DNA of 64,000 bases, from the IMG/VR virus record IMGVR_UViG_3300025769_000006. One strand, 5' to 3'. Of the stretch, positions 16-58,586 are shown one piece after another. The stretch's first letter is position 1, and every line of letters starts with the position of its first letter. This stretch comes from a virus. The position numbers were made by a program, and so were the translations under genes. The notes below the pieces were generated by a model. The model saw only the letters and a program-made list of their open reading frames with translations, was not told the origin of the DNA and made no database searches.

Positions 16-738
16 ATGGAAAAACAAATAGATCGCCGAGTGTGTATAGCAAACACACTATATGGAATACGATCTATGAATATTATAAATATTATTATGA
101 AAAACAGTTATCACAACGCAAATGAAGCATATGAAGCTTTGTTGAATGAAGTTGTAATTCACGGCGTAGACTTTGATAATACAAAAGCTTTATTTAATTG
201 TGGTTTTTATATTTTAGATCCACAAGACAATTATATATCAAACAAACAACGTAATTGGAGTTTAAAGTATGCAGAAGCAGAATGGCAATGGTATTTATCT
301 GGCGATCCAAATATTAATAAATTAGGCGAGCTATATGGTAAAATACCACCAATATGGAAACGTATGGCTGATGAGCATGGCAATGTTAATTCAAACTATG
401 GTTATCAGTGGAAACGTAAAGCTCAAATAGATTATGTTTGCGCTAAATTAAAGACAAACAAAAAAACAAGACACGCCGCAATATCTATTTACGATGGCAA
501 AGAATATGATAAATACAAAACAGATACTCCTTGCACTTATGCTATTCAATTTACAATTATAGGTAATCAACTGTGTATGTCTGTCTATATGCGTTCTAAT
601 GACATCTGGTACGGTTTCTGTAATGATCAGTATCAATTCTCATCATTGCAAAAAATGATTGCAGAGAGGCTGAATTTACAAATAGGTTGGTATTATCACC
701 ACGCGCATAATATGCACCTATATAACGACAAACTATAA
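16..738 (+). CDS. ThyA-fold pyrimidine-nucleotide hydroxymethylase/methylase; motif pattern closest to T4 gp42 dCMP hydroxymethylase
   Basis: Motifs EAEWQWY and VNSNYGYQW, the catalytic Cys context DTPCTYAIQF, and MRSNDIWYGFCNDQYQF, which aligns with the thymidylate synthase RS-D---G---N segment. Asp replaces Asn at the base-specificity position. The real start may be an internal Met (97). Confidence 0.75.
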   Translation: MEKQIDRRVCIANTLYGIRSMNIINIIMKNSYHNANEAYEALLNEVVIHGVDFDNTKALFNCGFYILDPQDNYISNKQRNWSLKYAEAEWQWYLSGDPNINKLGELYGKIPPIWKRMADEHGNVNSNYGYQWKRKAQIDYVCAKLKTNKKTRHAAISIYDGKEYDKYKTDTPCTYAIQFTIIGNQLCMSVYMRSNDIWYGFCNDQYQFSSLQKMIAERLNLQIGWYYHHAHNMHLYNDKL

Positions 739-742
739 ATTT

Positions 743-1516
743 ATGTATTATATTTATCATATTCCGGGTAAAAAGATAGGCGTTACACGTAATCTTAACA
801 CTAGAGTTACCCTTATACAAGGCTATAAGGAGGGTGAGTATGAAGTTCTTGAACGGTCAGAAGATATAGATTATATATCAGACCGTGAAATAGAACTTCA
901 AAAGTCTTATGGCTATAAAACTGATCTTCACAAATACAATAAACTAAAACCTTTATTAAATAAAATGAAAATAAATTCTACAGAACAAACATCAACTTTT
1001 CCTTGTCCATTAAATAAATTAAAAGGTAGATTAATGGATAATATTGGTTTAAAATGGAAAACAACACACGGAGACTTTAATATAACAAAACAAACTATTA
1101 ACTGGATAGTAGCAAATGCTAAAGCATCTATGTTTGATAATGAAAGATGTTTTATTTATAATAAAGCTTTTTATGAATGTTTTTTAAATCCAGATCATAA
1201 TCCCTCAGGTGATCCTGAAATATCAAGATTTAATTTAATAAGAGAATGGGCTGACAGTAGAGGCATAACTAGCAAAGGTAACTCACATACTCAGTACGTT
1301 AAACTAATGGAAGAAGCTGGCGAACTAGCAGAAGCAATATTAAAAAAAGATAGAAAAGAAATATACGACGCAATAGGCGATATGATAGTTGTATTAACAA
1401 ATCTAGCTACATTAGAAGATATGAAAATTGAAGACTGTATAGATTATGCTTACAATGAGATATCTAAAAGAAAAGGTAAAATGATTAATGGAACATTTGT
1501 AAAAAATACATTATAA
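743..1516 (+). CDS. Fusion-like protein: GIY-YIG-like N-terminus plus MazG-like (all-alpha) NTP pyrophosphohydrolase C-terminus
   Basis: N-terminus YYIYHIPGKKIGVTRNLNTR...REIELQ resembles the GIY-x10-YIG-x-NL-x2-R...E pattern. C-terminus LMEEAGELAEAILKKDRKEIYDAIGDMIVVL is the MazG EEXXE...D signature. Confidence 0.6.
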   Translation: MYYIYHIPGKKIGVTRNLNTRVTLIQGYKEGEYEVLERSEDIDYISDREIELQKSYGYKTDLHKYNKLKPLLNKMKINSTEQTSTFPCPLNKLKGRLMDNIGLKWKTTHGDFNITKQTINWIVANAKASMFDNERCFIYNKAFYECFLNPDHNPSGDPEISRFNLIREWADSRGITSKGNSHTQYVKLMEEAGELAEAILKKDRKEIYDAIGDMIVVLTNLATLEDMKIEDCIDYAYNEISKRKGKMINGTFVKNTL

Positions 1517-1830
1517 TGAAGATAAACACTAAAGATGAAATAGTATTATCAGTACTAAAAAAAATGGATCAACGTAGTATTATTGGTCAACAAAAATACG
1601 GAGCTACAATGATGCAAGAAATCGAAGGTCAAGAAAAAGATCTTAATCGTTTCTTGGTTGATGTGCAAGAAGAGTTAATGGATGCTTTATTGTATATTGA
1701 AGCTGCGAAACGTTGTTTACAAGATGAGATTGAAGAGTGTATGATTAATAGAATAAACGTTGTAGGTCAAAATGGTAACGATGGTTTACACTATCATGAT
1801 ATAGAAATAAATGAAGCGGAGACCTTATAA
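1516..1830 (+). CDS. Small helical protein, tentatively a MazG-like/dNTP pyrophosphohydrolase-like domain
   Basis: QKYGATMM...FLVDVQEELMDALLYIEAAK has the acidic-helix pattern of small phage NTP-PPase domains. Start overlaps the upstream stop (ATAATG). Confidence 0.35.
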   Translation: MKINTKDEIVLSVLKKMDQRSIIGQQKYGATMMQEIEGQEKDLNRFLVDVQEELMDALLYIEAAKRCLQDEIEECMINRINVVGQNGNDGLHYHDIEINEAETL

Positions 1831-2269
1831 ACGAAAGAAAAAACGCGGACCTGTACAGTCAAAAAAAGTGTCGTATGATGGTATTAATTTTGCTTCAGGC
1901 CTTGAGCGTTACATGTACATGGCTTTAAAGAAAAATAAAATTAAAGCTAAATACGAAGGAGAGACTTTTGTTTTATTAGCAGGTTTTCATTTTGAAAACG
2001 AGGTTTATGAAAGATGTAGTAATGGTAAGGGTGATTATAAAAACAGAGGTTGTAAACGTATATTACCTATTAAATACACTCCTGATTTCATTGGTGATGA
2101 TTTTATAATAGAAACAAAAGGTAGAGCTAATGAGTCCTTTCCAATGCGTTGGAAATTATTTAAAAGACTTGTTATGAATCAGTTTCCTAATTACACATTA
2201 TATAAACCACAAAATCAAAAAGAATGCGACGAAACAATAAGCATAATCCTTTCGAAGCGAAAAGGATAG
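1811..2269 (+). CDS. PD-(D/E)XK nuclease (DUF1064 / T7 endonuclease I-like junction resolvase candidate)
   Basis: Basic N-terminus, FASGLERYMYMAL, then YTPDF...IIETKG, which is the D...E-x-K core. Confidence 0.5.
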   Translation: MKRRPYKRKKKRGPVQSKKVSYDGINFASGLERYMYMALKKNKIKAKYEGETFVLLAGFHFENEVYERCSNGKGDYKNRGCKRILPIKYTPDFIGDDFIIETKGRANESFPMRWKLFKRLVMNQFPNYTLYKPQNQKECDETISIILSKRKG

Positions 2270-2397: not shown

Positions 2398-2539
2398 TAA
2401 TAATAATATTTCTTGGTCTTTAGAAGTTGGCTTTTACCCAGGCATTCTATTTGGATTAAGAACTTATGATGAAGAAGAAAGAGTTTCATGGGTTTTATAT
2501 ATACCTTTTATTGATTTATGTTTAACAATTTATAAGTAA
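2390..2539 (+). CDS. Small hypothetical protein (49 aa)
   Basis: Hand translation gives MDNNNNISWSLEVGFYPGILFGLRTYDEEERVSWVLYIPFIDLCLTIYK. Its stop overlaps the nrdB start as TAATG. Confidence 0.3.
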   Translation: MDNNNNISWSLEVGFYPGILFGLRTYDEEERVSWVLYIPFIDLCLTIYK

Positions 2540-3507
2540 TGGGTTTATTTGATGAGCGCGTAGCGTATAAACCATTTGAATACCCTGAATATTATACAGA
2601 GGGTTGGTTAAAGCAAGCACAAGCATTTTGGTTACATACTGAAATCTCAATGCAAAGTGATATTAAAGATTGGAAAGAGAAATTAAATGAAAAAGAGAAA
2701 AACTTGGTTGGAAACATACTACTCGGCTTCGCACAAACTGAATGTGCGGTGTCGGATTATTGGACGCAGAAGGTTGTCGGGTGGTTTCCTAAACACGAAA
2801 TACAACAGATGGCAATGATGTTTGGATCTCAAGAAACAGTTCACGCTGTTGCTTATAGTTATTTAAACGAAACACTAGGATTAGAAGATTATGAAGCATT
2901 TTTACACGAACCAGCAACGGCTGCTAGATTTGATAATTTGGTTGCTTACGACGGTAATAATCCTGTTGGTATTGCGAAAAGCTTGGCTGTATTTTCAGCC
3001 TTCGCTGAAGGAGTTAGTTTGTATAGTGCTTTTGCAGTGCTTTATAGTTTTCAGCTTCGAAATTTACTTAAAGGTATCGGGCAACAAATGAAGTGGTCTG
3101 TAAGAGATGAGTCTTTACACAGTAAAATGGGCTGTAAACTTTTTCGAGATATGTGCAATGAAAACGATCAATTACTGCATTTATGTCGAGAAGATATAAT
3201 AAAAGCTGCAGAAAACATGGTATCACTTGAAACTAAATACATTAGAAAAATGTTTGAAGCTGGAGATATAGATGGTATAAAAGCAAATGATTTAATACAT
3301 TTTATAAAAAAGAGAGCAAATGAAAAACTGGTTGAACTTGGTTACATTGATCTTGGCTCGTACTTCGCGTATGACAAAGATGCAGCGTCTAATCTTGATT
3401 GGTTCTATCATCTTACCGGCGGGGTCACTCATACTGATTTTTTCGCAATACGGCCGACGGATTATTCGAAGGCTAACGAAGGCGAAGACTTTGACGACAT
3501 TTGGTAA
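2539..3507 (+). CDS. nrdB: Ribonucleotide reductase class I beta (R2) subunit
   Basis: Ferritin-like di-iron motifs: SQETVHAVAYSY, FAEGVSLYSAFA and VRDESLHS. Length 322 aa and adjacent to the alpha subunit. Confidence 0.95.
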   Translation: MGLFDERVAYKPFEYPEYYTEGWLKQAQAFWLHTEISMQSDIKDWKEKLNEKEKNLVGNILLGFAQTECAVSDYWTQKVVGWFPKHEIQQMAMMFGSQETVHAVAYSYLNETLGLEDYEAFLHEPATAARFDNLVAYDGNNPVGIAKSLAVFSAFAEGVSLYSAFAVLYSFQLRNLLKGIGQQMKWSVRDESLHSKMGCKLFRDMCNENDQLLHLCREDIIKAAENMVSLETKYIRKMFEAGDIDGIKANDLIHFIKKRANEKLVELGYIDLGSYFAYDKDAASNLDWFYHLTGGVTHTDFFAIRPTDYSKANEGEDFDDIW

Positions 3508-3951: not shown

Positions 3952-5673
3952 ATGTGGAATAATGAATGGAAAAAAGGAGAAGACTATCCAAGGTGGGGAG
4001 ACACGGATGTTTACAAAAAAACTATCTCAGGAGGATATTTACTTGCTGGAGAATCTCCTAAGCAAGCGTATGAAAGAGTATCAAAAACGGTCGCAAGAAG
4101 GTTATACAAACCGGAAATGGCAGAAAGATTCTTTGAATATATTTGGAATGGTTGGCTTTGCCTTGCTAGTCCTGTTCTTAGTAACACTGGGACTGATAGA
4201 GGTCTTCCTATAAGTTGTTTTGGTATAGACGTCGCGGACAGCATACAAGATATAGGGCATAAAAATTTAGAGATGATGCTACTCGCTAAGCACGGCGGTG
4301 GAGTTGGCATTGGCATTAACATGATTAGACCCGCCGGCGCTAAAATAACAGGGAATGGAACATCAGATGGAGTCGTACCCTTCTGCAAAATATATGACTC
4401 AACAATTCTTGCAACTAATCAAGGATCTGTCAGACGAGGAGCTGCTTCAGTTAACATTAACATTGAGCACGACGATTTTGAAGAATGGCTTGAAATTAGA
4501 GAGCCAAAGGGAGACGTTAACAGACAGTCGCTTAATCTACATCAATGCGCAGTTGTTGGTGACAAGTTTATGCGTAAGCTTGAACAAGGAGATACGGACG
4601 CTAGAAATAGATGGAGTAAATTACTTAGAAAAAGAAAAGCAACTGGAGAACCGTATATATTATTTAAAGGAAACACTAACAAAAGAAATCCAAAAGCATA
4701 TAAAGAAAACGGTTTAAAAGTACATATGACAAATATATGTTCTGAGATCACGTTGCACACTGATGAAAACCATAGTTTTGTTTGCTGTTTATCATCATTA
4801 AATTTAGCTAAATATGAAGAATGGAAAGGTACAAATCTTATATACGACGCCACTTGGTTTCTTGATGGCGTTATGGAGGAATTTATTCAAAGAGCAAAAG
4901 GACTTAGAGGTTTTGAAAACGCGGTTCGTAGTGCTACAAAAGGAAGAGCACTCGGGTTGGGTGTACTCGGATGGCACACGTATCTCCAAGAAAACGGAGT
5001 ACCTTTTGAAGGTCTACTTGCTCAGTTTGAAACTAGGAAAATATTTTCGCAAATTAAAATTGAAAGTGAAAGAGCTTCCAGGGATCTTGCTGAAATTTAT
5101 GGCGAGCCTTTGTGGTGTGTTGGTACTGGTGTGCGCAATACTCACCTTCGCGCTATTGCTCCCACTGTATCTAATAGTAAGCTTTCGGGCAATGTATCTC
5201 CGGGTATTGAGCCGTGGGCGGCAAACGTATTTACAGAGCAATCTGCTAAAGGAACGTTTATAAGAAAAAATCCTACATTATTAAAACTATTAAGAAAACT
5301 TAAAATAAATAACAATGAAACTTGGGACAAAATTTTGGCAGATGGTGGTAGTGTTCAAGGTTTATCTGAGCTTGACGGGATTGTGGTTGGGCCTCATGAT
5401 ATACCGGCTAAAGAAGTATTTAAAACTTTCAAGGAAATAAATCAGTTAGAGTTGGTTAATCAAGCTGGTATACGTCAGCAATATATAGATCAATCTGTTA
5501 GTTTAAATCTAGCTTTTCCTAGTGTTGCTAAACCTAAATGGATTAATCAAGTTCATATGCAGGCTTGGAAAAATGGTATTAAAACCTTATATTACACAAG
5601 GACAGAGTCAGTGCTAAGAGGAGATATAGCACAACAAGCAATGAGCGAAGATTGTTTGGCTTGTGATGGCTAA
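3952..5673 (+). CDS. nrdA: Ribonucleotide reductase class I alpha (R1) subunit, short form without an ATP-cone
   Basis: LPISCFG, NICSEITL, CCLSSLNL and GLGVLGWH active-site motifs, plus the C-terminal Cys pair CLACDG. Confidence 0.95.
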   Translation: MWNNEWKKGEDYPRWGDTDVYKKTISGGYLLAGESPKQAYERVSKTVARRLYKPEMAERFFEYIWNGWLCLASPVLSNTGTDRGLPISCFGIDVADSIQDIGHKNLEMMLLAKHGGGVGIGINMIRPAGAKITGNGTSDGVVPFCKIYDSTILATNQGSVRRGAASVNINIEHDDFEEWLEIREPKGDVNRQSLNLHQCAVVGDKFMRKLEQGDTDARNRWSKLLRKRKATGEPYILFKGNTNKRNPKAYKENGLKVHMTNICSEITLHTDENHSFVCCLSSLNLAKYEEWKGTNLIYDATWFLDGVMEEFIQRAKGLRGFENAVRSATKGRALGLGVLGWHTYLQENGVPFEGLLAQFETRKIFSQIKIESERASRDLAEIYGEPLWCVGTGVRNTHLRAIAPTVSNSKLSGNVSPGIEPWAANVFTEQSAKGTFIRKNPTLLKLLRKLKINNNETWDKILADGGSVQGLSELDGIVVGPHDIPAKEVFKTFKEINQLELVNQAGIRQQYIDQSVSLNLAFPSVAKPKWINQVHMQAWKNGIKTLYYTRTESVLRGDIAQQAMSEDCLACDG

Positions 5674-6217: not shown

Positions 6218-6574
6218 TTAATAATAAGTCCAAATTAAGTTTTGTGATTTGTTTTCGTCTATGTCTACGTGTATAAAACTACTACCTACACCTATTCTTT
6301 TAAATCCAACCTCAATAAAAGCATTTACCATGTCAAATCTATCTTTAGATGTTTTACAGCTTATGTCTGCAGCGATGCCTAGCATATGAGAAGAGTTTTT
6401 AACCCCACCAATCTTAACATTATGTTCTTTTGTTCTATAACCCGAATTCACGCGCATGGGTCTACCGTATATTTCTCTTGCTTTATCTAACATTTCTAAG
6501 AAACATTGATCCATTATCTTACCACTACCTGGCAAACCTGGACAATCAAATTCTTCTATTTTAAAGTGTTTCAT
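6218..6574 (-). CDS. Peptidase M15 family (zinc D-Ala-D-Ala carboxypeptidase-like) endolysin
   Basis: SGYRTKEHNVKIGGVKNSSHMLGIAADI ... FIHVD supplies the H-x6-D and distal His zinc ligands. Confidence 0.85.
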   Translation of the reverse strand: MKHFKIEEFDCPGLPGSGKIMDQCFLEMLDKAREIYGRPMRVNSGYRTKEHNVKIGGVKNSSHMLGIAADISCKTSKDRFDMVNAFIEVGFKRIGVGSSFIHVDIDENKSQNLIWTYY

Positions 6575-6578
6575 ATTT

Positions 6579-9500
6579 TTATAAATTTATATCTATATCT
6601 AAGTTTAAATCTATATTTAAGTCATTTAATTCTCCACCAAAATCTAAACCAAAAGGATTGTTTATATTGTTGTTATTTTGGTATTGATCTTCGTCTAAAT
6701 CTAAATTCCATTTACTATAACCAAAGAAGAAAGCAATTCTTTGCCATGTTTCATATTGACTATCTAACACGGCTGCTGCATTTTCTGCTTTTATCATTAG
6801 CCTATCAAGCGGTATATTTAAAGTTGCAGATGTTAAAGTTGTAAGAGCCTCTAAAGCGTAAGGATTTTTTATTGGATCCCAACCCCAATAATCAAAGTAT
6901 TCTGACTTATAACTATAAGACTGATAAGCTTTAGCTAATTTTCTAGCCTTAATACCTATAGGTGCAGAAACATTTAAAGCTTCTATAACTAGTTGATATT
7001 CTTTTCCTCTACCACGTCTTGGTCCTTGACTAAGCTCGTAAGCTTTTAGCGAAACATTTTTGACAGCAGCAATATAAGCTCCATACAAACCAGCTCCTCT
7101 TATTAAAGTATCTAGCATACTATTGGCAGCTCTAGTTTTACTTTGCGTATAATCTACATATCTTTCATCATCATCGTCCCACATTCTAAATAAAGCGTTT
7201 TGCAAGAAATTAAATATAAAATTTTGAATAGCCGCATAATAAACTATTTTAGAAACATTACCAGTAAAACTACCTCTATTTTTTGCAATATTTAAAGCTG
7301 CAGTTTTTATTATTCTAGCGTATTGTAGTGGTGTGTTTTGAAATGCCAAAAGCAATCTACCTTTAACAGATGCTTGGTTTTGAGAGATTTTAGATGGATC
7401 TGCTGACTGTTGACTTATTTCAGCTGTTTCGTAAAACTCTAACATAGCTCTTTTTTCGGCTTCTGCTCTATCAACTCCTTTTTTAACTAAATCATTTATT
7501 CTATTTCTATAAAAAGTAGTTCCACCTAATGTTATTGCTAAGCTATCAGCGGCTCTTGTTGGTATAAAACCTTTTTTAAGAGCCCAAAATATTAAACCTT
7601 TTGTTTTTTGTGCCCATGTTTTATTATTAGGACTATTCAAAACATCTACAAACTCCGCTTCTTGTAAATCACTTAATAAACCAGATCTTCTATCTTTTAA
7701 ATAAGGAGAGTTCCAAAGTGTTTTAAAATCTTTAACCATTTGTGGAACATTTAATATAGCTTTACCAGCAGCTAAAGGATTATTAAATGTCATATTAATA
7801 AAGTTTGTAGCTGATATTGTTTGCAGTAAAGCAGATCTCATGTTGAAAAACATAGTAACACCTACAGAACCATTAAGCCAGTCAACCCAACCTCTAGTTG
7901 CTTTATCTAAACCTTTAGGTTTGTTTGTACCGGTTTGCATTCTACCTAAAACATCTGTTAGAGCATCAACATAAGGAGTACCATAAGCGGCTTGTAATTT
8001 AGCCATTGTTTCTTTGTTAAATATCAAATCAACATTTTGCTTCCATCTTTGTAAATATTTAGCTCTATTTAGTTTAGTTAATATAGATTGAACGTCTGAA
8101 AGTATGTTACCATCAACCCATTGTTGAGGTGGTTCTATATATCCATTAGGTTGTTTAGCTAATAATGATATTTGTTGAGCTAATTTTCTTAACTTTGGAT
8201 TTGTTCGAACTACTTCAGATAAATTAAATATATCTTTAGATTCTAAATCTGGTATTTGATATCCAGCTTTTTTCCATAAATAAACTCTTATAGCTTGATC
8301 GTTACTAAAACCAGAATAACTAGAATCTTCTCTTAGTAGTTTTTTTGTTTGCTTATCAAATAAGTTTTTCCAATCTCTATGTGCTGAGTTTCTAGCATTT
8401 ATTAAATCTAAGTTGCCTTCTGAATAAGGTTTTATTATATTTTCTGTTACCCAATCTACTTGTTGCTCTCCTTTTTTACCTCTACCTGAAGCAACCATAA
8501 GCATTAAACCTAAAAAATCAGAATCTGCAGGTGGTAAATATATTTTTTTAGAAATATTCTTAGCCATCTGCTCTGCTCTTGCTTTAGAAAAAGTTTCTTC
8601 TACAGCAATGCCAGTATTTTCTTCAATTATTTGATTAAACGCTGTATTTAAATTATTACTATAATTTTTATTATTTTCTAAAGAAAATTTAGTAACATCT
8701 AAAACGCCTTTTGTTATTTTACCTTTTTTATTGTTAGCGTTTTTAAATTCAAATTCATTATATCCTTGAGATATTTTATCTATTAAATAATAAGAAACTG
8801 CTTTATCGTTCATCTTACCTAAGTCAGGAACTTTAAATTTGTTTCTTTTTTGGCTAAACTTAGAAACTTGTCTAGATGCTTGATCCATTATTCTAGCTGT
8901 AAAAAACTGCTGATTAGGATCATTAGAATATGTAAGATAAGAATTTAGCTTAGCATTGTTTCTAGTTCCATTGCTCATGCTAAATTTAACTTTATCAGAT
9001 TTTCCTTTAGCAAAGTTGTTTATTACCTTGTTTCTTGTATTTATATTTTGTAAATCGTTGTATAAGTTTACATTTCTTTTAGATATTTCATTTAAGAAAG
9101 CATCGTTTCTTAAAGAGTTTCTAGCTTCTTGAAGAACTAAAACATCTCCAAATAATTCCATTAAAGCTGTTCTTCTATCAAAATAAGCTGTAGCCCAAAG
9201 TTTATTGCCTGTTCTACTTAATTCAACTGGTAGTAATTTTTTTAATAAAACGTTAGGATTTTTACTATAAGTTCTTATTATTCTAGTTGCTTCATCTACA
9301 CCAAAATAACTCTGTAAAAAAGTAACAACATTTATATCTTTTGTTTTCTGCGGCCTACCTTGATCATCTGTGGTTTTTAATCTTGGTGGAACTTTCTTTA
9401 TAGCATAGGTGGACTCACCGGTGACTGGATCAATTGGATTGTTTATGACTTCCCATATAGTTTTCCAGTTGTTAAACATAAATGAATCTAGATCTGTGCT

Positions 9501-12500
9501 ATTTTTAAACGTCATTCTTCTTGAGAGAGTTTGAGATAATATAGCTAATTTTTCTTTAAAATTTCTAAAATCTAAAGTTTCTATGTTTGGTGCTGATAAT
9601 ATTTCTCTTCTAATTTCAGCGGCAATAATTGCAGCTGGGTTTATTTCTTGAGAATATGCTTTATATGTTTTTATAAAACCTCCAGAAGCAACACTATATG
9701 TTTTAAAAGATTTTAATTCTTTTAACTCTTTTGCTTCCTCGTCTGTTAATCTTTCTTTAGCTTCAAGCTCTAAACCTCTTTTTAAATCTCTTTTTTCTTG
9801 CTCTAATTGTTTTTTAATAGCTGGATCTGTAACTGACTTTAGCTTTTTATTTACAGCTATAGAAGGATCATCTGCATTTAAAGCAAAATCACCACCAACT
9901 GGCACGCCTTCTATTAATATAGGATCACCGTCGCTGTTAGAAAATCCAAACGTAGGATCTTTTAACAAAGTTATTAATTCATCTTGATTTTTTTCAAACT
10001 CTTCTTTTTGTTCTTGAACATTAGTTTCATTTGATGTTTCAATAGAAGTTGCTCTTTCATCTATTTCGTCTGTAAACTTTTGACTAGTAACATTACCTGT
10101 TTTAAGGGCTTGTTTCATTTTGTTTCTTAATTGACTGTTTATCCAGCCATTAAGATTGTTGTTTTCTAATATAGTTTCACCCTCAGAATTTTTATATCCT
10201 TTTTCGTCTAGCTTGTTTAAAGTGCTATTTATTTCAGAAGAAGAAAATCCTTTTTGTTTAAGTTTTTCTCTTTTCTTTTCTCTAAGCTCTAAAAATTCTT
10301 TATTAAAATTTCTAATATGTGGTATTAATGCTATAGAAGTTTCAGCAATCATATCTTCAACACTATAATCAGGTAAATTTCCATATAAAACAGATGCCTT
10401 ATCTAGTATAGGTTTTTCATACTCATTTAATATATCGTATAAAACGTTATCAACACCTGATGATTTACCCCAAATATTTTTATTATAAAAAGAATTTACT
10501 TTTAATTTAAATTCTTCTGAACTTGTTCTTTTCTTTGGTTTTAAAGAAAACTTTTCATCAAAATTAAAATTATCTTCTATGTCTTGTATTTCATCAAGAG
10601 TTGGTTCTCTATCTAAAACAGGCTCTTGTGGTGCTTCTTTTTTATTTTTATCAACAAACTCTTGAGACTCTCTTTCTAAAGCTTTTGTGTCTATTTGAGC
10701 TCCTTTTTCAGCTACTTCAATTAAAGCCTTGTTTTTATCTGCTGTAAGTATTCTTGAATTTATACTAGTATTGTAATCTTTTATAAAATTATAAACATCT
10801 CTAGCAGAATTAAATTTTATATTTTTAAAACCTAAAAACTGTAGAACCTGTCTTATTGTATCTGCTATTTTTGTAAAAGTATCTGCTTCATAAGTTACTG
10901 CACCAACTGTTATAGCGTCAGAATAAAGTGTTAAAACCTCTTCCCATTGATTTCCAACAGCTTCTGATACTTTTCTATCATACTCTTGTTTAGTTATAAC
11001 TCCAGATTTTAAATCAGCATCAAAACCTTTTATCATGTCGTTGTAAAATGCAATATAACTAGTAAAGTCTTTTAAGAACTCATCTGGTAAAGCTTTTTCA
11101 AGAGACTCATTAGAATCTAGCTTATCTTGTATTTTCATTACTTCAGCTAAAAGAGATTTACCTAATAACACTTGAGCTTCAGGGTTGTTTCTTATAGTCT
11201 CATACATTACACCATGTAAAAACTCATGCTCTTTTACAGTAACTTTACCGTCTTTAGAGGCTTTTTCGTTGTTTATAACTATATATTGCTGATCACCTCT
11301 TTGTATTGTAGTTCCATATTTTTGAGCTGTTGAAGTTGCTTTTGCTTTTGTATAGCCTAGTTCTTCAACTAAAAAGTTAACAAGATCTTCAGTTGAATCA
11401 AACTCGTTCCATGATATATTTTTAAACTTACCTTTTTTTATAGCTTTTTGTATAATTCCACTTTTTCTTTTTGTTATATCATTATAGTAAGCTGTTTTTA
11501 TTTTTTCATCTAAAGCAGCTATTCTAGCGTCTGTTTCTGAGTGAAAAGATGGATCTTCTGTTTTTCTTTGTTGTCTGAGTCTACCAACTTCATTAACGTC
11601 TCCTAGTATTTGACTAGCAGCTTCAGCTGATAAATCTTGAGGCATTCTGTTTATATTGTTATTAAAAGCATTTATTTCTTCTAATACTTGATCAGCCTCT
11701 TGTTGAGTGTATATACCTTGATTTACTTGTTTTGCTAATAAACTTTTTACATCTTCTTTTTTATAAGCTAAGTAGCTTAAGTTGTTAAATCTATCTACAG
11801 CTGACATACCTAACATCTGCCTAGCCGTTTGCTTTGCTAGATTAAGTGTTACACCAGCGCCTGGCATAATTGCGCCTGCAAAGAAAGAAAGAATCGTAGT
11901 ATCAAGAAAGTCTTGCATACTCATTGTGTCCTTAAGTATTTTCTTTCCAGCTATTTCATTTACATTTTTGTTTACAGCAAATACTTCACCTATTTGTTGT
12001 ACATTTTCTTGAAAAACTTCTTTTAAACCTTCCCCACCTAAATTAACAAGTGTTCCAAGTTTTCCACTTCTAAAATAATCTATAAAAGAGTTTTTTCCTT
12101 TTTTAGTATATTCTCTTAGCGCGTTTCCTACAAAGTTTTTTGTAGTTAATTTACCAAATATAGCGTCAGTAGCTTTTGTCTGTGGAGAAATAGGAGCTGT
12201 TAAAGCGTATAATATACCTGTTTGTATAGAAGCAATAGTAGCAAGTTCCGAGGCTTCTGCATCGTTTATTCCCATTTGTCTAGCTTGAGCTAGTGTTTGT
12301 TCATAACCTCTAGAAAATCCCATAGTGCCTTGTGCTATAATAGCATCTGCCATAGATCTTTTTATTGGAATAGATTTTAAAAAGCTTCTAGTTTTACCTA
12401 GTATTCCCATACCATTAGTAAAACCACCGACAGCTCTAATACCGTTGCCCATGCCTCTAGTCATAGCTATTTGCACAAATAAATCTCCCAACACGTTAGC

Positions 12501-13940
12501 TCCAGAATCAAAAGCACCTAAAACGCTAAATGCTCTATCTTTAGTACCTCTTTCTCTAGCCTCTTTTCTTATTTGATCTGCTTTTTCTTGTGTTAAAAAG
12601 TTTGTAGCATCTAAAGATCTTGTTTTGTCTAATATTCTACCATCTTTTGTTACTAAGTAAATAGTGTTAGTTTCTGCATCTACTATAGAATTACCTATAC
12701 CATTTACAAAACGACCAGGACCGGTATAATGTTTCCACTTACCTTCCATGCCTAATTTTTCTAAAGCAATTTCTTCTCTTATAGATTCGGAAACACCTTC
12801 AAAATAATCACCTGGTAATATACCATAAAAAGACGCACTAAGCTCTTCTATTCTATCACTAAATCCGTTCCAACCATTTCCTCCAACATTTAAAAGAAAT
12901 TGACCTGCGCTAATATTTCCATCAGATTTCAAGAGTTTTTGATACTCCATATTATCTCTTTCGTCTGCTTCTTGCATTTTAGCAGATATAATTGGAAACT
13001 CTTTTCTAACGTAAGATTCGTATTGGTTTAATTTTATATTTTCAGGAGATATTTGAAATTTTTTATTAATAGAATTTGGATCTATACCAGTTTCAGATTG
13101 AAACATTAATTTTTGTTGCTTAATGTCTCTTTGTATTTGTTCGTTTAAATATAAATTAAAATATTTTAGTTTTCTTCTTTCGTAAGCAAGTTCAGGATCA
13201 TAAGCATTTCCATAAGATTTTTTATCCATGTCAAGCTCTAAAAATCTTTTTAAATCTTCGTCATATCCTTTGTTTCTCATAAATCCAGCAAAATCAACTT
13301 GATTCATGTTGTCTAGATAAACATCTCCATATACGTCATTAACAAAGTTATCTTGAGGATCAAATTCTTCGTATATATACGGTTGATTTAATTTTTGAAT
13401 ATCTATGTAAGTTTGTATTTCATCTTTACCTTTACTTTGAAAAGTAGCAATTCTACTTTTTGCTTTATCTCTTTCATATTTAGGTATAGGATTTATAGTA
13501 GACAAACCTAGTGGATCATCTTTATAACCAGCTTTTATAAGGTCTTCTTCACTTATAAAATTATTATCTACAGCTAATTGTATGTTTTCATCTTCAAATA
13601 AACCAAATTGGTTTTGCTTGAGTAGACTTTCTTTGTCAAATCTATTAATAGATTCTCCTACTTGAGATTTTAGATTTTCATCTACGTTTGGATTAAAATA
13701 CTCAAAATTATTTATATCTAAGCTACCTGGAGATACCGATAAAGTATTTTCCGAAATTAAATCCCCATCTTGACTCGGTGCGAACATGTTGTTTGAAGGC
13801 ATCGCATTTGCACCCGCTGCAACACCCTCCACTTTTTTTAATTTTGCACCTGGGTTTTCAGACAAGAAAATTATTTTTTGTTGTTCTGGATAATTAGTCA
13901 AATCAACTTCTTCTCCATTTGGTAAAATATATATTTCCAT
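6579..13940 (-). CDS. Giant (2453 aa) virion-associated, polyvalent-type protein with an HExxH motif
   Basis: Uninterrupted 7.4-kb ORF at the distal end of the structural block. It has an internal VTVKEHEFLHGVMYE zincin-like motif, long coiled/charged linkers and a D/N-rich repetitive C-terminus (LDLDED...NIDLNLDIDINL). Confidence 0.6.
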   Translation of the reverse strand: MEIYILPNGEEVDLTNYPEQQKIIFLSENPGAKLKKVEGVAAGANAMPSNNMFAPSQDGDLISENTLSVSPGSLDINNFEYFNPNVDENLKSQVGESINRFDKESLLKQNQFGLFEDENIQLAVDNNFISEEDLIKAGYKDDPLGLSTINPIPKYERDKAKSRIATFQSKGKDEIQTYIDIQKLNQPYIYEEFDPQDNFVNDVYGDVYLDNMNQVDFAGFMRNKGYDEDLKRFLELDMDKKSYGNAYDPELAYERRKLKYFNLYLNEQIQRDIKQQKLMFQSETGIDPNSINKKFQISPENIKLNQYESYVRKEFPIISAKMQEADERDNMEYQKLLKSDGNISAGQFLLNVGGNGWNGFSDRIEELSASFYGILPGDYFEGVSESIREEIALEKLGMEGKWKHYTGPGRFVNGIGNSIVDAETNTIYLVTKDGRILDKTRSLDATNFLTQEKADQIRKEARERGTKDRAFSVLGAFDSGANVLGDLFVQIAMTRGMGNGIRAVGGFTNGMGILGKTRSFLKSIPIKRSMADAIIAQGTMGFSRGYEQTLAQARQMGINDAEASELATIASIQTGILYALTAPISPQTKATDAIFGKLTTKNFVGNALREYTKKGKNSFIDYFRSGKLGTLVNLGGEGLKEVFQENVQQIGEVFAVNKNVNEIAGKKILKDTMSMQDFLDTTILSFFAGAIMPGAGVTLNLAKQTARQMLGMSAVDRFNNLSYLAYKKEDVKSLLAKQVNQGIYTQQEADQVLEEINAFNNNINRMPQDLSAEAASQILGDVNEVGRLRQQRKTEDPSFHSETDARIAALDEKIKTAYYNDITKRKSGIIQKAIKKGKFKNISWNEFDSTEDLVNFLVEELGYTKAKATSTAQKYGTTIQRGDQQYIVINNEKASKDGKVTVKEHEFLHGVMYETIRNNPEAQVLLGKSLLAEVMKIQDKLDSNESLEKALPDEFLKDFTSYIAFYNDMIKGFDADLKSGVITKQEYDRKVSEAVGNQWEEVLTLYSDAITVGAVTYEADTFTKIADTIRQVLQFLGFKNIKFNSARDVYNFIKDYNTSINSRILTADKNKALIEVAEKGAQIDTKALERESQEFVDKNKKEAPQEPVLDREPTLDEIQDIEDNFNFDEKFSLKPKKRTSSEEFKLKVNSFYNKNIWGKSSGVDNVLYDILNEYEKPILDKASVLYGNLPDYSVEDMIAETSIALIPHIRNFNKEFLELREKKREKLKQKGFSSSEINSTLNKLDEKGYKNSEGETILENNNLNGWINSQLRNKMKQALKTGNVTSQKFTDEIDERATSIETSNETNVQEQKEEFEKNQDELITLLKDPTFGFSNSDGDPILIEGVPVGGDFALNADDPSIAVNKKLKSVTDPAIKKQLEQEKRDLKRGLELEAKERLTDEEAKELKELKSFKTYSVASGGFIKTYKAYSQEINPAAIIAAEIRREILSAPNIETLDFRNFKEKLAILSQTLSRRMTFKNSTDLDSFMFNNWKTIWEVINNPIDPVTGESTYAIKKVPPRLKTTDDQGRPQKTKDINVVTFLQSYFGVDEATRIIRTYSKNPNVLLKKLLPVELSRTGNKLWATAYFDRRTALMELFGDVLVLQEARNSLRNDAFLNEISKRNVNLYNDLQNINTRNKVINNFAKGKSDKVKFSMSNGTRNNAKLNSYLTYSNDPNQQFFTARIMDQASRQVSKFSQKRNKFKVPDLGKMNDKAVSYYLIDKISQGYNEFEFKNANNKKGKITKGVLDVTKFSLENNKNYSNNLNTAFNQIIEENTGIAVEETFSKARAEQMAKNISKKIYLPPADSDFLGLMLMVASGRGKKGEQQVDWVTENIIKPYSEGNLDLINARNSAHRDWKNLFDKQTKKLLREDSSYSGFSNDQAIRVYLWKKAGYQIPDLESKDIFNLSEVVRTNPKLRKLAQQISLLAKQPNGYIEPPQQWVDGNILSDVQSILTKLNRAKYLQRWKQNVDLIFNKETMAKLQAAYGTPYVDALTDVLGRMQTGTNKPKGLDKATRGWVDWLNGSVGVTMFFNMRSALLQTISATNFINMTFNNPLAAGKAILNVPQMVKDFKTLWNSPYLKDRRSGLLSDLQEAEFVDVLNSPNNKTWAQKTKGLIFWALKKGFIPTRAADSLAITLGGTTFYRNRINDLVKKGVDRAEAEKRAMLEFYETAEISQQSADPSKISQNQASVKGRLLLAFQNTPLQYARIIKTAALNIAKNRGSFTGNVSKIVYYAAIQNFIFNFLQNALFRMWDDDDERYVDYTQSKTRAANSMLDTLIRGAGLYGAYIAAVKNVSLKAYELSQGPRRGRGKEYQLVIEALNVSAPIGIKARKLAKAYQSYSYKSEYFDYWGWDPIKNPYALEALTTLTSATLNIPLDRLMIKAENAAAVLDSQYETWQRIAFFFGYSKWNLDLDEDQYQNNNNINNPFGLDFGGELNDLNIDLNLDIDINL

Positions 13941-16780: not shown

Positions 16781-18052
16781 TTAATATGAAGACTCTTTAT
16801 AATTTGTTGATATAGCGAACAACTCACTTTTGTCTTGTGCATTACTGCATGTAAAAGTTACTTCTGCAGTATATCCTTTTATTCCTGAAATAGAATTACC
16901 AAAAACAATTTCGCCTTGTGAAAAAGCTGTTGAGTTTACTAAATTAGCAAAATACTTATCTTCTTTTCTTTTAAATTCATTTTTAAATAACTGATCGTCT
17001 AGTTCAGTGATTGTTGTAGGCATAACATACACGGCAACAGGTAAAGCTGAATCACCAGAATTTGTTGATATACTAGTCATAGCCCAATTATTGCCACCTT
17101 CGTAATTAATAGTTTGAAAGTTTTTAATTAATGAAGGTTGAGAATTAAATATAGTTTTAACGCTAGCGTCATATTGTGTTCCGTAAAAATTAGCTCTAGG
17201 TAGATTACTTCTATAGTGTTGATATATACCTCCTTCGCTTGTTGTGTAAAAATTATTTTGCACACTAACCACATTGTTAGGGCTATAGCTATATCTACTA
17301 GTCCAACCTTGAACTTGTTCATCAAAACTAAGTGTTTGAACTGGAGTTCCTGATGCTGCAGATTGCAGCGATAATGTATAGCACTTATTATGTATATCCC
17401 AACCTCCAATAGAAAGTCCACCGCTTAAAGTTGCGAAATTATCTCTAAAATAATCATACATACCATAAGCTGATATTTCTGTTATACCGTCTTGCGATAA
17501 TCTAAGTACAGCGCCTTGATTAGAGTCTGTAAAATATTTTCTATAACCATACACCGCAAAGCTTTCAGGGTTTTTTGATATACCAAATTCACCAGCATAT
17601 GGCGTTATAGCTCCAATAACAACATTTGAAGCTGTTTGTATAGGTTGACCTTCTTGCGTATATATAGCGTCTTTATCTATAAGAGCTCTGTTAACTTTAT
17701 TTTCTTGGAATATAATTAAATTAGTATCTTCAGCGTAAAGCTTTTGTACAGTACCTTTTTGGGGGTCAACAGTTCTAGTTATTTCTTCACCAGATGGAAA
17801 TTGATTGGTTTGATTCACACCTGTTCTAGAGTTTAATATACCTGAATATATTAAAGAATTACCAAGTTCTTCTTGTAAATTATCTTCAGCTCTTAAATAA
17901 GCTCTAGGTGATAAACCCGTTTGAACGTTATTATAACCACCTCTAATTCTAGCTTCTTCTATGTACCAGTTGTAAATAGGTGAAACATCTCCTTGTATTA
18001 TTTTTTTCAAAACAAAGGTATTGTAGTATTTTACTGGTGTTTTTACTGCCAT
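16781..18052 (-). CDS. Tail/structural protein (hypothetical)
   Basis: 423-aa ORF immediately downstream of the 1681-aa tail protein. Confidence 0.5.
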   Translation of the reverse strand: MAVKTPVKYYNTFVLKKIIQGDVSPIYNWYIEEARIRGGYNNVQTGLSPRAYLRAEDNLQEELGNSLIYSGILNSRTGVNQTNQFPSGEEITRTVDPQKGTVQKLYAEDTNLIIFQENKVNRALIDKDAIYTQEGQPIQTASNVVIGAITPYAGEFGISKNPESFAVYGYRKYFTDSNQGAVLRLSQDGITEISAYGMYDYFRDNFATLSGGLSIGGWDIHNKCYTLSLQSAASGTPVQTLSFDEQVQGWTSRYSYSPNNVVSVQNNFYTTSEGGIYQHYRSNLPRANFYGTQYDASVKTIFNSQPSLIKNFQTINYEGGNNWAMTSISTNSGDSALPVAVYVMPTTITELDDQLFKNEFKRKEDKYFANLVNSTAFSQGEIVFGNSISGIKGYTAEVTFTCSNAQDKSELFAISTNYKESSY

Positions 18053-18093: not shown

Positions 18094-21000
18094 TTAAGGA
18101 CCAATAAATTGACCCGCAGAATCAGACATACCTATTGTTGGATATTTACTAACTTGACCATTAGAGCCAACATACATTGGAGGATCAAGAGTTACAGAGG
18201 TTAAAGACGAAGACGTTGGAGGTTGATTACCAGGATTTCCAAAATAATAAGGTGGCGAAGGCATGTTTGCGTTTGTTGTATTGTTCCATACTAAATTAAA
18301 ATCACCAGTAGCACCATTTGCATTTGCTCTAAAACCCATATTAACCATAGCGCAAGCTGAAAAGTCGTAAGAACCATAAGAACCACCACTAGATCTCATA
18401 CCTGGTCTTAATCCTGCAGCCACTGCTAAATCAAAATTTGTTTGTGTCATTCCTCCTGAAGCAGCCGTGAAAGGTTGTAAGCCACCAACTATTATCCATT
18501 GATAAGGTCCAGCGGCATCACCTGTTGAACCTGGACCATTTGGCGGTGGTGGATAATAGTTATTGCTAAAATTACTAACAGCCGCTGGAACAGAATTACC
18601 AGTGCTTATTCCAAAGCTATTACCTTGACTGTCGGTAAAATTAGTACTATTGTCACCGTATCTAGGATCTGAATTTGGATATAAAGGATATTGAAATGTT
18701 GATCGTTTTGTTGCGCCGTTTGTATTTCTTATTGAACAGTAAGCATATATGTACACAGGTTGATCAGTCCAGTTTTGCATTTGATAATAACCATCTTTTG
18801 TTGATGTTCCTTGAATTGTTGTTCCTGATAAAACAGGTTGGAATTCAGAATCTGAATTACTGTATTTAGCTATTATAACTTGACCAAAGTATGTTGTAAC
18901 GCCAACGCTATATGTTATTTTAGCAGCATAAGCACTGTCTACAGTTGTATTATAAGCTTGTAAACTATCTTTTAAAGACATGTTTATTTCGTAAGAATAG
19001 TTGGGTTCATTTAAAGGACCTGGATTTTGACCGTTAGAACCTAATTGACCACTTAGATTAAAACCAATCCATTCGTCAGCTCCAGATCCACCAGCTTGAC
19101 CTTCTTGAAAAGTAGGCCAATCTGCTGAAGACTGATAAGTAGATACCCAATCACTTACAGAAGGTGTCGTTGCAGTTGTTACCTCAACTGTATTACCAGT
19201 TGTAGCGTTTGTTTTTGTGATGTTAACAACTTGCCAACCAGACTGAAGACTACTAGATAAAAACTCTCTACCTGTAGGATCAGAGTCATTATATGGTGCA
19301 TTAAACTGTCTAGCTGAACCATTTCTTCCTCTAGGTGAATTTCCTGAGGTTACTATAGTTGTGCTCGTAGTAAGAACAGATCCAGTTCTATCTACTATAG
19401 GATTTTGAACAATAGGAACAACATTTTCTAATTGGACTATGAAAGACTGATCTACTTGTGTTCCGTCGAGTTGAGCTAAAGTTAAAGTAAATTGAAACTT
19501 ACCTCTAGTTGCTACATCATAATTAGGCTCTTGAGAAGATCCAGCATAAAATCTATCGTTTGTTTTAACTATATAACTACCTGTTGAACCACCTGGCTCA
19601 ATAACAAACCTGCTAGCTTGTGGAATAGTCGTGTCTAAATTGCCATTAGCATCGTGAGCAAAAACGGTGTAACTAACGAGTGTTGTATTTGCTAAGTTTA
19701 CTCCATTTGCAACTGGAAATATATCACTAGTTATAGCTGTTCCAGAGGCCATTGATTCTATAAAAGAAACTGTAAAACTATTTAAACCAGTTATATTGTT
19801 ACTAGTATTCTGTATAGACAGATTCAAATCAGATATTTTATCAGACGTAGAAGACTCATAAAATATTTCTAATGGTGATATATATGGAGCTGTTTCGTAA
19901 ATAGCTAACCCCATATTTGGTGGATAAGGATAATTACCTGTAAAGTTTATATCGTCAGGTTGAGTATAAGACTGCTCACCTAATCCAACGGCTTTTTGGG
20001 TTGATATTTTAGCTAAAACAGGTTTTGTATCAAAACTATATATAGCGTATTTATTTATAAATCCTGGACCTGTATTATCGCTTAAACCAGGATATAAATC
20101 ATTTATACCTCCGACTAAATTAACTTGATCAGCGGCGGATTCTGGATCAACTTGCTTATTAAATGTTTCATAAGTAACTGTTGTTGATTCAACACCTGGT
20201 ATATTTGTAACTCTAGGCCACATAGAAACATCGCTTGTAAACTGATTTTGATTTGGTCCTACATCTTCTAAATTTCTAGGAATTTTATTAATGTTGTCAG
20301 TTATTAAAACAATATTAGCAACTTCGTTTTGCTCTAAAGTTTCTTCGTCTATTGGATAACCATTTACAATACCTGGAAGAAAAACATTATAATAGTCTTG
20401 TTGCTGTTGTTTTACAGCGGTTTTGTACACAAAAAATCCATTTGGATTAATATCATATGTAGCGTAAACATTTAAACCTGTCTTAGCAGGTAGTCCAGTT
20501 GTTGCGCTGCCTGGTGAATTGTCAAAAACATAATCTAAACTAACTTCCTCTTTTGTAAAAAACTCTACAGCTCTAACGCCATTAGCGTCACTTATAGGTG
20601 TAACACTAGTTATTTCTGTATAATCTATGTATAAGCCATTTAATTTTTTACCAGGCGCATAATATTGAGAATAAGTAGTTGGCCAATCTGGAAATAAAGG
20701 TCTATTTGTACTTGAAGCAGCCCCAGTACTGTATTTATATCTCCTATCAGATGTGTATAATATTTCTACTTTTACAACTTGAGGCGCAGTTATAGCCGTG
20801 TTTAGTGTAACTCTTAAATAATTAGAATTATCAGATATTGTATATTCAGTAGATTCTATTAACTTAAAACCATTGTTATAGTCAATATATACATTAAACG
20901 TGTTGGATGAGTCAGTAGCGTCTGCGTATGTAAAATAACTATCAAATGTAGTACCAGCGTTTGTGCTTGTGAATTTAAAATATTGAGTTGAAAGAGGTAT

Positions 21001-58388: not shown

Positions 58389-58586
58389 ATGTATATGATT
58401 AGATTTATAAAATTCACAATAGTCTGGATCAGTCAAAATCTTGCAATACCTTTTTGGGTTGTAGGTCATGTTCACTTATCAATATCAGACTATAAAGATA
58501 TACACGAGATAATAGCTAGTATAGGTATGAATATAATAGTCTTTACTGGTTTTATTATAGATTTTAAACAACAAGATAAACTATGA
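58389..58586 (+). CDS. Small membrane protein
   Basis: 65 aa with two hydrophobic segments. Confidence 0.45.
   Translation: MYMIRFIKFTIVWISQNLAIPFWVVGHVHLSISDYKDIHEIIASIGMNIIVFTGFIIDFKQQDKL

Follow-up and report, generated by a model that had tools for sequence, protein, structure and literature searches.

A predicted dCMP hydroxymethylase and its MazG-fusion neighbor in an abundant uncultured marine phage lineage

Does a phage gene with a thymidylate synthase (TS) fold make dTMP, or does it serve to modify cytosine? The question is raised by the start of a 64,000-nt stretch of DNA from IMG/VR record IMGVR_UViG_3300025769_000006 (hereafter the window), where a ThyA-fold open reading frame (ORF), ORF1, is followed closely by ORF2, which has a MazG domain, and by the small ORF3. 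An initial annotation of the window had proposed that this locus begins a DNA modification pathway of the hydroxymethyl-deoxycytidine type. We consider it reasonably likely that ORF1 is a methylene-tetrahydrofolate (CH2-THF)-dependent dCMP hydroxymethylase, that is, a 5-hydroxymethyl-dCMP synthase. The hydroxymethylase hallmarks of ORF1 and the adjoining nucleotide pyrophosphatase further lead us to propose that the DNA of the phage probably contains a modified cytosine. Judged from its sequence, the locus is a cytosine hydroxymethylation module of the type known from T4 gp42 and from MetaGPA contigs, unusually minimal and found in an abundant lineage of uncultured marine phages. As a kind of system it is not new: its chemistry, signature residues, and pyrophosphatase pairing have already been published. 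The three genes at the center of the analysis are as follows.

ORF1, 16..738 as the longest ORF (240 aa) and 97..738 as the probable gene (213 aa), + strand: predicted dCMP hydroxymethylase (5-hydroxymethyl-dCMP synthase) of the ThyA fold
ORF2, 743..1516, + strand: three-part protein of 257 aa with a C-terminal MazG domain
ORF3, 1516..1830, + strand: helical protein of 104 aa, possibly a member of the pathway

Fold and family of ORF1

Profile searches bear out the ThyA fold that had been noticed in the first ORF. ORF1 matches the Pfam family Thymidylat_synt (PF00303) at E=2e-26 with 93 bits (cut-off 24), along with four PHROG thymidylate synthase families. The exact product of ORF1 is not on record, and homologs at ≈80% identity served for comparison. 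Its best sequence match in the PDB is the CMP 5-hydroxymethylase MilA (2.8e-18), followed by bacterial thymidylate synthases and by T4 deoxycytidylate hydroxymethylase (dCH; 1.3e-13). Among the NCBIfam TS models, whose equivalog cut-offs range from 108 to 427 bits, the best model gives 74.8 bits (cut-off 327) and TIGR03284 gives 52.9 bits (cut-off 108). Pairwise, ORF1 scores 73 bits with E. coli ThyA and 62 bits with T4 gp42. A neighbor-joining tree of the subfamilies is star-like, so overall similarity does not separate them, and we dropped global phylogeny and bit scores as a means of calling the subfamily. Because similarity and tree are uninformative in this respect, the assignment of ORF1 rests on its signature residues and on the gene context of its relatives. 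The gene is under purifying selection (dN/dS = 0.11).

The start of ORF1 probably lies further downstream than was initially annotated. In related circular genomes, an 81-aa gene located upstream overlaps the start of the TS-like gene, and the homolog of this gene in the window (...IWNTIYEYYKYYYEKQ...) reads in another frame through nt 125. Most ORF1 homologs are 213-223 aa long. Both observations make the ATG at nt 97, which yields a protein of 213 aa, the likelier start; the ORF that begins at nt 16 would then be over-extended.

Diagnostic residues of ORF1

Residue rules that distinguish the enzymes of this fold were taken from four studies (PMC6400193, PMC13326640, PMC5175136, PMC8670742) and checked in our own MAFFT alignments, using E. 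coli numbering. At position 177, Asn specifies uracil and Asp specifies cytosine, according to Graves (1992) and others as cited in PMC8670742, PMC6400193, and PMC13326640. The residue three places ahead of the catalytic Cys (-3), at position 143, is Leu in methyl-transferring TS enzymes and Asp or Glu in hydroxymethylases (PMC6400193, PMC13326640). Its T4 counterpart is D145, by which the substrate water is activated; the mutant D145N is dead for hydroxymethylation (PMC6400193). A Ser-x-Tyr motif (T4 S94/Y96) positions the proton-abstracting water, and the C-terminal tail of TS, which T4 dCH lacks, seals the active site for hydride transfer (PMC6400193). Position 169 is Asp in the folate-dependent enzymes and Asn in the flavin-dependent 5-hydroxy-dCMP synthases RB69 gp48 and DLP3 gp80 (PMC13326640). 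At positions 167 and 126', Ser and Arg go with deoxyribose, and the CMP-preferring enzymes MilA and BcmA have Ala and Lys instead (PMC5175136). Finally, position 147 is the second most discriminating site between modified and unmodified contigs (PMC8670742). In our alignment these rules classified all seven reference enzymes correctly; the residues at three of the positions are listed below.

T4-type gp42 (552 bits to PDB 1b49, numbering verified): -3 Asp, 169 Asp, 177 Asp
VPE25: -3 Asp, 169 Asp, 177 Asp
XP12, the 5-methylcytosine phage: -3 Asn, 169 Asp, 177 Asp
RB69 gp48, for 5-hydroxycytosine: -3 Glu, 169 Asn, 177 Asp
SPO1-type gp29 and ViI-type dUMP hydroxymethylases: -3 Asp, 169 Asp, 177 Asn
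T2 and E. coli TS: -3 Leu, 169 Asp, 177 Asn
ORF1: -3 Asp, 169 Asp, 177 Asp

The Asp at the specificity position, from which the initial annotation had started, is present. It is the last Asp (nt 625-627) of the segment MRSNDIWYGFCND, and it falls on the Asn177 site of E. coli ThyA in HMMER alignments to PDB chains as well as in MAFFT alignments, within the context GFCND; the same residue aligns with the Asp of MilA. The T4 motif quoted at that stage was also correct, as T4-type gp42 reads NMRSNDVVFGFRND. The catalytic Cys (E. coli C146, T4 C148) is encoded at nt 532-534 and the general acid Glu (E58, T4 E60) at nt 280-282. An Asp occupies the -3 position (L143 equivalent, T4 D145; nt 523-525, context KTD-TP-C), and positions 146/147 are Cys/Thr. 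The Ser-x-Tyr motif, NSNYG, is exactly that of T4 (Ser at nt 391-393, Tyr at nt 397-399). Equivalents of Arg126 (nt 469-471), Arg166/Ser167 (nt 592-597), Asp169 (nt 601-603), and His207/Tyr209 (nt 715-723) are all found, and the C-terminal tail of TS is absent.

This signature is invariant among 122 close homologs, bar one or two exceptions at single positions: the -3 Asp occurs in 122 of 122 and Asp169 in 121 of 122. In an exhaustive HMMER search, 118-119 of 120 representatives of 50%-identity clusters carry the signature, with the -3 Asp in 118 of the 120.

The same residues bear on what else ORF1 could be. Its homologs go by the name of thymidylate synthase in the databases and MilA is its top PDB sequence match, so that either an ordinary TS converting dUMP to dTMP or a MilA-like CMP (ribo) hydroxymethylase might be considered; we find this pair of assignments very improbable. 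ORF1 departs from the ThyA class by Asp instead of Asn177, Thr instead of His147, and Asp instead of Leu143, by the missing tail, and by a score of 75 bits against equivalog cut-offs of at least 108. A homolog 47% identical to ORF1 also coexists with ThyX. As for MilA, ORF1 has deoxyribose-type Ser and Arg residues at the sites of the ribose-permitting Ala176 and Lys133 of that enzyme (PMC5175136), with YMRSND and KKTRHA in ORF1 opposite ymrAnd and pdsKra in MilA.

An enzyme like that of phage XP12 is a closer competitor. In this case ORF1 would be a dCMP methyltransferase that forms 5-methyl-dCMP by reductive methyl transfer, leading to 5-methylcytosine in the DNA. Asp177 is shared with the XP12 enzyme, and N177D is reported to turn TS into a dCMP methylase, as cited in PMC8670742 and PMC13326640. 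The Ser of Ser-x-Tyr also occurs in XP12, and the motif is hence not discriminating alone. We nonetheless regard the assignment as improbable, since the residue at -3 is Asp in ORF1, Asn in XP12, and Leu in TS, and T4 D145N is inactive (PMC6400193). The C-terminus differs as well: 4 residues follow the Tyr209 equivalent in ORF1, compared with 28 in T4 gp42, 55 in E. coli TS, and 61 in XP12. The XP12 enzyme gene, moreover, is adjoined by genes for dihydrofolate reductase (DHFR) and dCMP deaminase. We ran Pfam and/or PHROG profiles over every ORF of at least 100 aa in the window, as well as over two giant virion ORFs, and searched for P-loops with a regular expression. Neither a DHFR nor a dCMP deaminase was found among the ORFs of at least 100 aa. 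The absence of DHFR fits a hydroxymethylase, whose reaction releases tetrahydrofolate (THF). The description of the XP12-type class is itself soft, because the family is defined by one characterized phage.

A flavin-dependent 5-hydroxy-dCMP synthase of the RB69 gp48 or DLP3 gp80 type would share the fold, Asp177, and an acidic residue at -3 (PMC13326640). ORF1 lacks the diagnostic D169N substitution, reading RSND opposite the RSQN of RB69 gp48, and Asp169 is kept in the close homologs as described above. The genome also has no arabinose or NDP-sugar gene cluster, and this assignment is in our view highly unlikely. By its residues, then, ORF1 displays every published hallmark of a folate-dependent, deoxyribo-specific, cytosine-specific hydroxymethylase.

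T4 gp42 (PDB 1b5e, 6a9a) is one of the characterized enzymes nearest to ORF1. The two share the fold, their NSNYG and MRSND..GF.ND motifs are identical, and both are without a TS-type tail and have an all-alpha NTP pyrophosphatase as a partner. Equivalents of T4 E60, S94, Y96, R123, D145, C148, T149, R168, S169, D171, D179, H216, and Y218 are all present in ORF1. The overall identity, however, is only ≈32% over 143 residues, and ORF1 is 33 aa shorter, having 4 residues past the HxY motif where T4 gp42 has 28.

Gene neighborhoods of ORF1 homologs

The nearest cultured homolog of ORF1 is p32 of Bacteroides phage BF486P2, which is 44% identical and has the same short form (226 aa). The BF486P2 cluster (L001, OP172667.1, 6641..12669) also encodes a 611-aa carbamoyltransferase (Carbam_trans_N and _C, 1e-34), an AAA_28 kinase-like protein, a second TS-like paralog, and dut; the carbamoyltransferase and the AAA_28 protein are both annotated as hypothetical. 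This set of genes is the one that MetaGPA has tied to 5-carbamoyloxymethylcytosine (PMC8670742). By analogy, the BF486P2 locus has the look of a 5-carbamoyloxymethylcytosine cluster that had gone unannotated in the genome of a cultured gut phage.

Next in similarity are the TS-like proteins of the Enterococcus phages VPE25 and VFW (36.5% identity), which have the same three Asp residues. In VPE25, the gene adjoins a dUTPase-family gene, that is, a gene of dNTP pyrophosphatase type, and a beta-glucosyltransferase gene. VPE25 DNA is cytosine-modified, and the DNA of these phages resists both bisulfite conversion and restriction (PMC4999554). The MetaGPA contigs (eLife 2021, PMC8670742) likewise resemble our locus in combining a TS homolog that has Asp177 and a non-His residue at 147 with an adjoining PF01503/PF03819 pyrophosphohydrolase.

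Metagenomic homologs with 42-53% identity to ORF1 stand beside genes for dCMP deaminase, dUTPase, S-adenosylmethionine (SAM)-dependent methyltransferases, a thymidylate-kinase-like protein, or ThyX. Taken together, the contexts of the relatives are those of cytosine-modification modules and not of dTMP synthesis.

The genome in the window has no carbamoyltransferase, deaminase, or kinase such as occur in the MetaGPA and BF486P2 networks. BF486P2 itself has two TS-like paralogs and a trimeric dUTPase in place of MazG. The VPE25 enzyme is longer (281 aa, with a C-terminal extension) and has a trimeric dUTPase-family partner, and VPE25 encodes, in addition to its beta-glucosyltransferase, a second sugar-related gene and its own Pol III alpha.

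Two mutually unrelated metagenomic phages provide a variant of the arrangement. In both contigs (L013, 6724..9117; L016, 6046..8639), a short TS-like gene 47-53% identical to ORF1 occurs with a class-I SAM methyltransferase, a dUTPase, and a dCMP/MafB19-type deaminase, and one of the two contigs carries ThyX fragments. The methyltransferase could produce a further derivative of 5-hydroxymethylcytosine.

The MazG-fusion protein ORF2 and the conserved ORF3

One clear MazG domain directly downstream of ORF1 had been predicted, and ORF2, which starts 5 nt downstream of ORF1, supplies it. Residues ≈160-257 (nt ≈1220-1513) form an all-alpha NTP pyrophosphohydrolase domain of the MazG type. They match Pfam MazG (PF03819; 8.4e-8, 32.8 bits, cut-off 22), PRA-PH (PF01503; 1.3e-5, 26 bits, cut-off 21.3), and the PHROG MazG-like family (7e-33), and they contain the metal-binding motif KLMEEAGELAEA...DAIGD (EEAGELAEA...DAIGD). 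The AlphaFold2 (AF2) model of the domain has a pLDDT of ≈82-94 over residues 160-240. Foldseek matches it with a probability of 1.0 and a TMt of 0.6-0.73 to 1vmg, 2gta, 7ody, and 7mu5, a set that includes MazG proteins, MazZ of phage S-2L, and human/mouse DCTPP1. Ahead of this domain, residues 86-160 constitute a middle domain common to some phage MazG-like proteins, and residues 1-85 (nt 743-997) are strongly conserved and lineage-specific, with a pLDDT below 50. The dN/dS of ORF2 is 0.22-0.33.

A YxYHIPGKKIGVT..R...E pattern noticed by eye in the N-terminus of ORF2 is reminiscent of GIY-YIG nucleases. The only profile match here is a sub-threshold one to MUG113 (E=0.096), which we take to be a family of the GIY-YIG clan. 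The region has no PDB match and no BLAST similarity to the GIY-YIG ORF in L016, and we leave the resemblance as a hint.

The pairing of ORF1 with a MazG domain extends beyond the close relatives. One locus (L018) has a TS-like gene of 42% identity to ORF1, and 2 nt after it comes a stand-alone MazG gene whose product shares 70% identity with the ORF2 domain. PF01503 pyrophosphohydrolases and TS homologs co-occur on cytosine-modified viral contigs (MetaGPA, PMC8670742). The substrate of ORF2 is most likely dCTP, possibly also dUTP; this proposal draws on the adjacency to ORF1, on the conservation of that adjacency, and on the analogy with T4 gp56 and S-2L MazZ. T4 pairs gp42 with the dCTPase gp56. 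In the S-2L MazZ/PurZ system, and with DCTPP1, a small MazG-fold pyrophosphatase makes the monophosphate substrate of the modifying enzyme and removes the canonical dNTP rival, much as we propose for ORF2. Both MazZ (7ody) and DCTPP1 (7mu5; 2oig with 5-methyl-dCTP) are structural matches to the domain. The bases and partner enzymes differ, however, and ORF2 has ≈160 extra N-terminal residues and a dCTPase activity that is predicted.

The initial annotation had tentatively seen a second MazG domain in ORF3, and this suggestion finds no support in Pfam, NCBIfam, PHROG, hhalign, PDB, or AF2. ORF3 has no MazG-clan Pfam match at E up to 1 and no NCBIfam match; its hhalign probability against the ORF2 family is 0.2%, and a PDB profile search gave no match at E up to 10. 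The alignment is shallow (Neff ≈1), so a remote kinship is possible. The AF2 model, a single long helix with a pTM of 0.39, is uninformative. ORF3 matches two weak PHROG families of unassigned function. Even so, ORF3 surpasses the other two genes in conservation, with a mean column identity of 94% (25 homologs) and a dN/dS of 0.08, and related genomes invariably have it after ORF2. One metagenomic protein (P0435, 177 aa) has ORF3 fused to a MazG segment, probably through read-through or a frameshift.

A predicted route to 5-hydroxymethyl-dCTP

Modeled on T4 gp42, the pathway would begin with the MazG domain, which may hydrolyze dCTP (perhaps also dUTP) to the monophosphate and pyrophosphate, thereby feeding ORF1 and depleting the rival canonical dCTP. 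From its residues, ORF1 is strongly predicted to convert dCMP, CH2-THF, and water to 5-hydroxymethyl-dCMP and THF, not dihydrofolate. In this reaction, the Cys at nt 532-534 would attack C6 of dCMP, and the Asp at nt 625-627 would read and protonate the N3/N4 face of cytosine. The Glu58 equivalent would open CH2-THF, the Ser-x-Tyr pair would position the water that takes the C5 proton, and a water activated by the -3 Asp would attack the exocyclic methylene. Since the site is not sealed by a C-terminal tail, hydration would be expected to win over hydride transfer. As the genome has no recognizable dNMP kinase or DNA polymerase, host enzymes would have to serve for the remaining steps: host kinases may, with some uncertainty, phosphorylate 5-hydroxymethyl-dCMP to 5-hydroxymethyl-dCTP, and the host replisome, primed by the phage primase-helicase, may incorporate it. 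Later decoration by unrecognized proteins is conceivable and unsupported. Catalysis, the MazG substrate, incorporation into virion DNA, and the extent of replacement are all predicted.

The core of the initial annotation, a dCMP-acting enzyme of ThyA fold in a hydroxymethyl-dC-type pathway, stands and is sharpened as a prediction. To the Asp at position 177 are now added the -3 Asp, Ser-x-Tyr, Asp169, Ser167/Arg126, and the missing tail, the apparently 5-hydroxymethylcytosine-decorating clusters of the two nearest cultured homologs, and the MazG pairing.

Several observations pull the other way. The main weakness of the full-pathway reading is that kinase and polymerase are absent: among the ORFs of at least 100 aa, we found no dNMP kinase by Pfam, PHROG, or P-loop scans, no recognizable DNA polymerase, and no glycosyl- or carbamoyltransferase. 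T4, unlike the window, has a gp1-type dNMP kinase, its own DNA polymerase, and glucosyltransferases. The same scans did find a terminase, a portal, virion proteins, a GroEL-like chaperonin, two sigma-factor-like proteins, a holin, an M15 peptidase, ERF, DUF3799, and a primase-helicase. In E. coli expressing the TS homolog alone, incorporation occurs only in traces, and robust incorporation needs the cognate dNMP kinase, as for T4 and RB69 (PMC13326640). Within ORF1, the Arg127 equivalent is His, and T4 R124, R177, and R220 correspond to His, Cys, and Asp; of these, T4 Arg177 and Arg220, which thus have no equivalent in ORF1, contact folate or its waters (PMC6400193). The C-terminus is ≈30 residues shorter than that of T4 gp42, and the subfamily tree, as noted, is star-like. 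Both TS-like paralogs of BF486P2 have the three Asp residues, and of the two it is the one located farther from the carbamoyltransferase that is closer to ORF1; a function other than that of classical dCH is thus conceivable for the ORF1-like subgroup. Many Paenibacillus, Staphylococcus, and Streptococcus phages without known modification have a MazG of the ORF2 type, and the substrate of ORF2 therefore cannot be read from homology. Lastly, no cultured isolate of the lineage was found in the phage collection.

Some of these points would suit a looser version of the pathway, in which ORF1 does make 5-hydroxymethyl-dCMP and the base is further derivatized by unrecognized phage proteins (ORF3, the N-terminal domains of ORF2, or small early ORFs) or, for want of a dedicated kinase and polymerase, only partly incorporated, or the gene pair mainly tunes the nucleotide pool, with the MazG domain perhaps an unrelated house-cleaning enzyme. 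We think this rather unlikely, with arguments on either side. The lack of a recognizable kinase, polymerase, or transferase among the ORFs of at least 100 aa and the commonness of the ORF2 MazG type in unmodified phages speak for it. So do the extreme conservation of ORF3, always linked and without a known fold, the many early ORFs without annotation, and the varied partners of ORF1 relatives (SAM methyltransferase, deaminase, carbamoyltransferase, glucosyltransferase). On the other hand, the TS-like/MazG adjacency is kept across a divergence to 42% identity and fits the published association with modified contigs (PMC8670742), and the strong purifying selection on ORF1-ORF3 argues for a working pathway.

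A bolder form of the hydroxymethylase proposal is that the ≈64-kb marine Bacteroidota-type podophages replace cytosine by means of a minimal two-gene kit, comprising the shortest known tail-less dCMP hydroxymethylase (213 aa) and a MazG fusion, and rely on host kinases and the host replisome. Alternatively, ORF3 and the N-terminal domains of ORF2 might provide a new kinase or transferase, leading to an undescribed cytosine derivative. We offer this proposal as speculative and give it little weight. The points of interest are bulk replacement without a phage kinase or polymerase and the roles of ORF3 and the N-terminal domains of ORF2.

If the hydroxymethylase assignment is right, 5-hydroxymethylcytosine or a derivative is present in the DNA of a very common lineage of marine phages, and the modification would shape the evasion of restriction and CRISPR defenses of Flavobacteriia-type hosts and might bias marine virome sequencing and methylation surveys. 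ORF1 would also offer a naturally minimal hydroxymethylase (213 aa, no tail) in which to study hydration versus hydride transfer, and the phage would be a test case for bulk base replacement without a phage dNMP kinase and DNA polymerase. Should the two-gene kit or a new derivative prove real, a sizeable fraction of ocean viral DNA would contain a non-canonical cytosine that is handled differently by standard virome methods, namely bisulfite, restriction, and some library preparations and polymerases. Our literature search on cytosine modification in flavobacterial and marine phages of this type found nothing specific.

Genome context

ORF1-ORF4, small ORFs, and the two ribonucleotide reductase (RNR) genes form a tight operon on the + strand at the start of the window. 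Its remaining named members are as follows.

ORF4, 1811..2269, + strand: DUF1064 / Holliday-junction-resolvase-like nuclease, a conserved neighbor
RNR small subunit, 2539..3507, + strand
RNR large subunit, 3952..5673, + strand

ORF4 probably has a role in replication or recombination rather than in the modification pathway. Both RNR genes are 88-89% identical to genes of the related locus L002 that have Pfam RNR matches. The RNR genes that the initial annotation had listed are present, and the place it had given them in a specific modification module finds no support; they provide a general dNDP/dNTP supply.

Four loci (L002-L005) are collinear with the window, at 69-89% amino-acid identity, in the order ligase, ERF, DUF3799 exonuclease, primase-helicase, 81-aa ORF, TS-like gene, MazG fusion, 98-aa ORF, DUF1064, RNR small, and RNR large. 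The window ends in the primase-helicase and begins in the 81-aa ORF, so that only ≈400 nt of a circular genome of ≈64.4 kb would be absent; by this comparison the window is nearly the whole genome. It had been suggested that further components, such as a kinase or glycosyltransferases, might lie upstream. The nearly complete window does not bear this out, and the relatives show primase-helicase, exonuclease, ERF, and ligase at that position.

Close homologs of ORF1, ORF2, and ORF3 number in the thousands for each gene across marine and other metagenomes (ENA, JGI, Tara), and several of them lie on contigs that are circular and 63-65 kb long. Portals of Flavobacterium, Cellulophaga, Maribacter, and Tenacibaculum podophages share 42-51% identity with that of the window, and the G+C content of the window is 32.5%. 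A megablast search of the first 6 kb against phages gave no match.

Other features of the window

The early region has undergone a module swap. Where related genomes have a 275-aa ATP-dependent DNA ligase (L002, 3905..4732), the window has a 162-aa protein and a 112-aa ORF (58583..59394, + strand). The 162-aa protein matches phrog_624, a 'DNA binding protein' family, at 3e-50, and has a weak match to Pyr_excise, the pyrimidine-dimer glycosylase family.

Among the late genes, a full-length GroEL-type chaperonin (42302..43858, - strand; Cpn60_TCP1, 8e-56) lies within the structural block. A 423-aa protein (16781..18052, - strand) matches the C-terminal domain of the crAss-virus muzzle protein at 7e-9, a hint of some structural relationship with crAss-like phages. 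A 1681-aa protein (18094..23139, - strand) has a Fib_succ_major domain (4e-22), and a 2453-aa ORF (6579..13940, - strand) is without a Pfam match. The lysis genes, at 6218..6574 and 35241..35642 (both - strand), encode a Peptidase_M15_3 endolysin (2e-17) and a holin with three transmembrane segments (GTA_holin_3TM, 2e-6); the endolysin of the relatives is, unlike that of the window, of the Amidase_2 type.

Two proteins of the sigma-70 family are encoded in the early region. One (57532..58083, + strand) matches Sigma70_r2 and r4 at 8e-11, and the other (60119..60871, + strand) matches the PHROG RNA polymerase sigma factor family at 3e-17. Their presence suggests a staged redirection of the host RNA polymerase by the phage.

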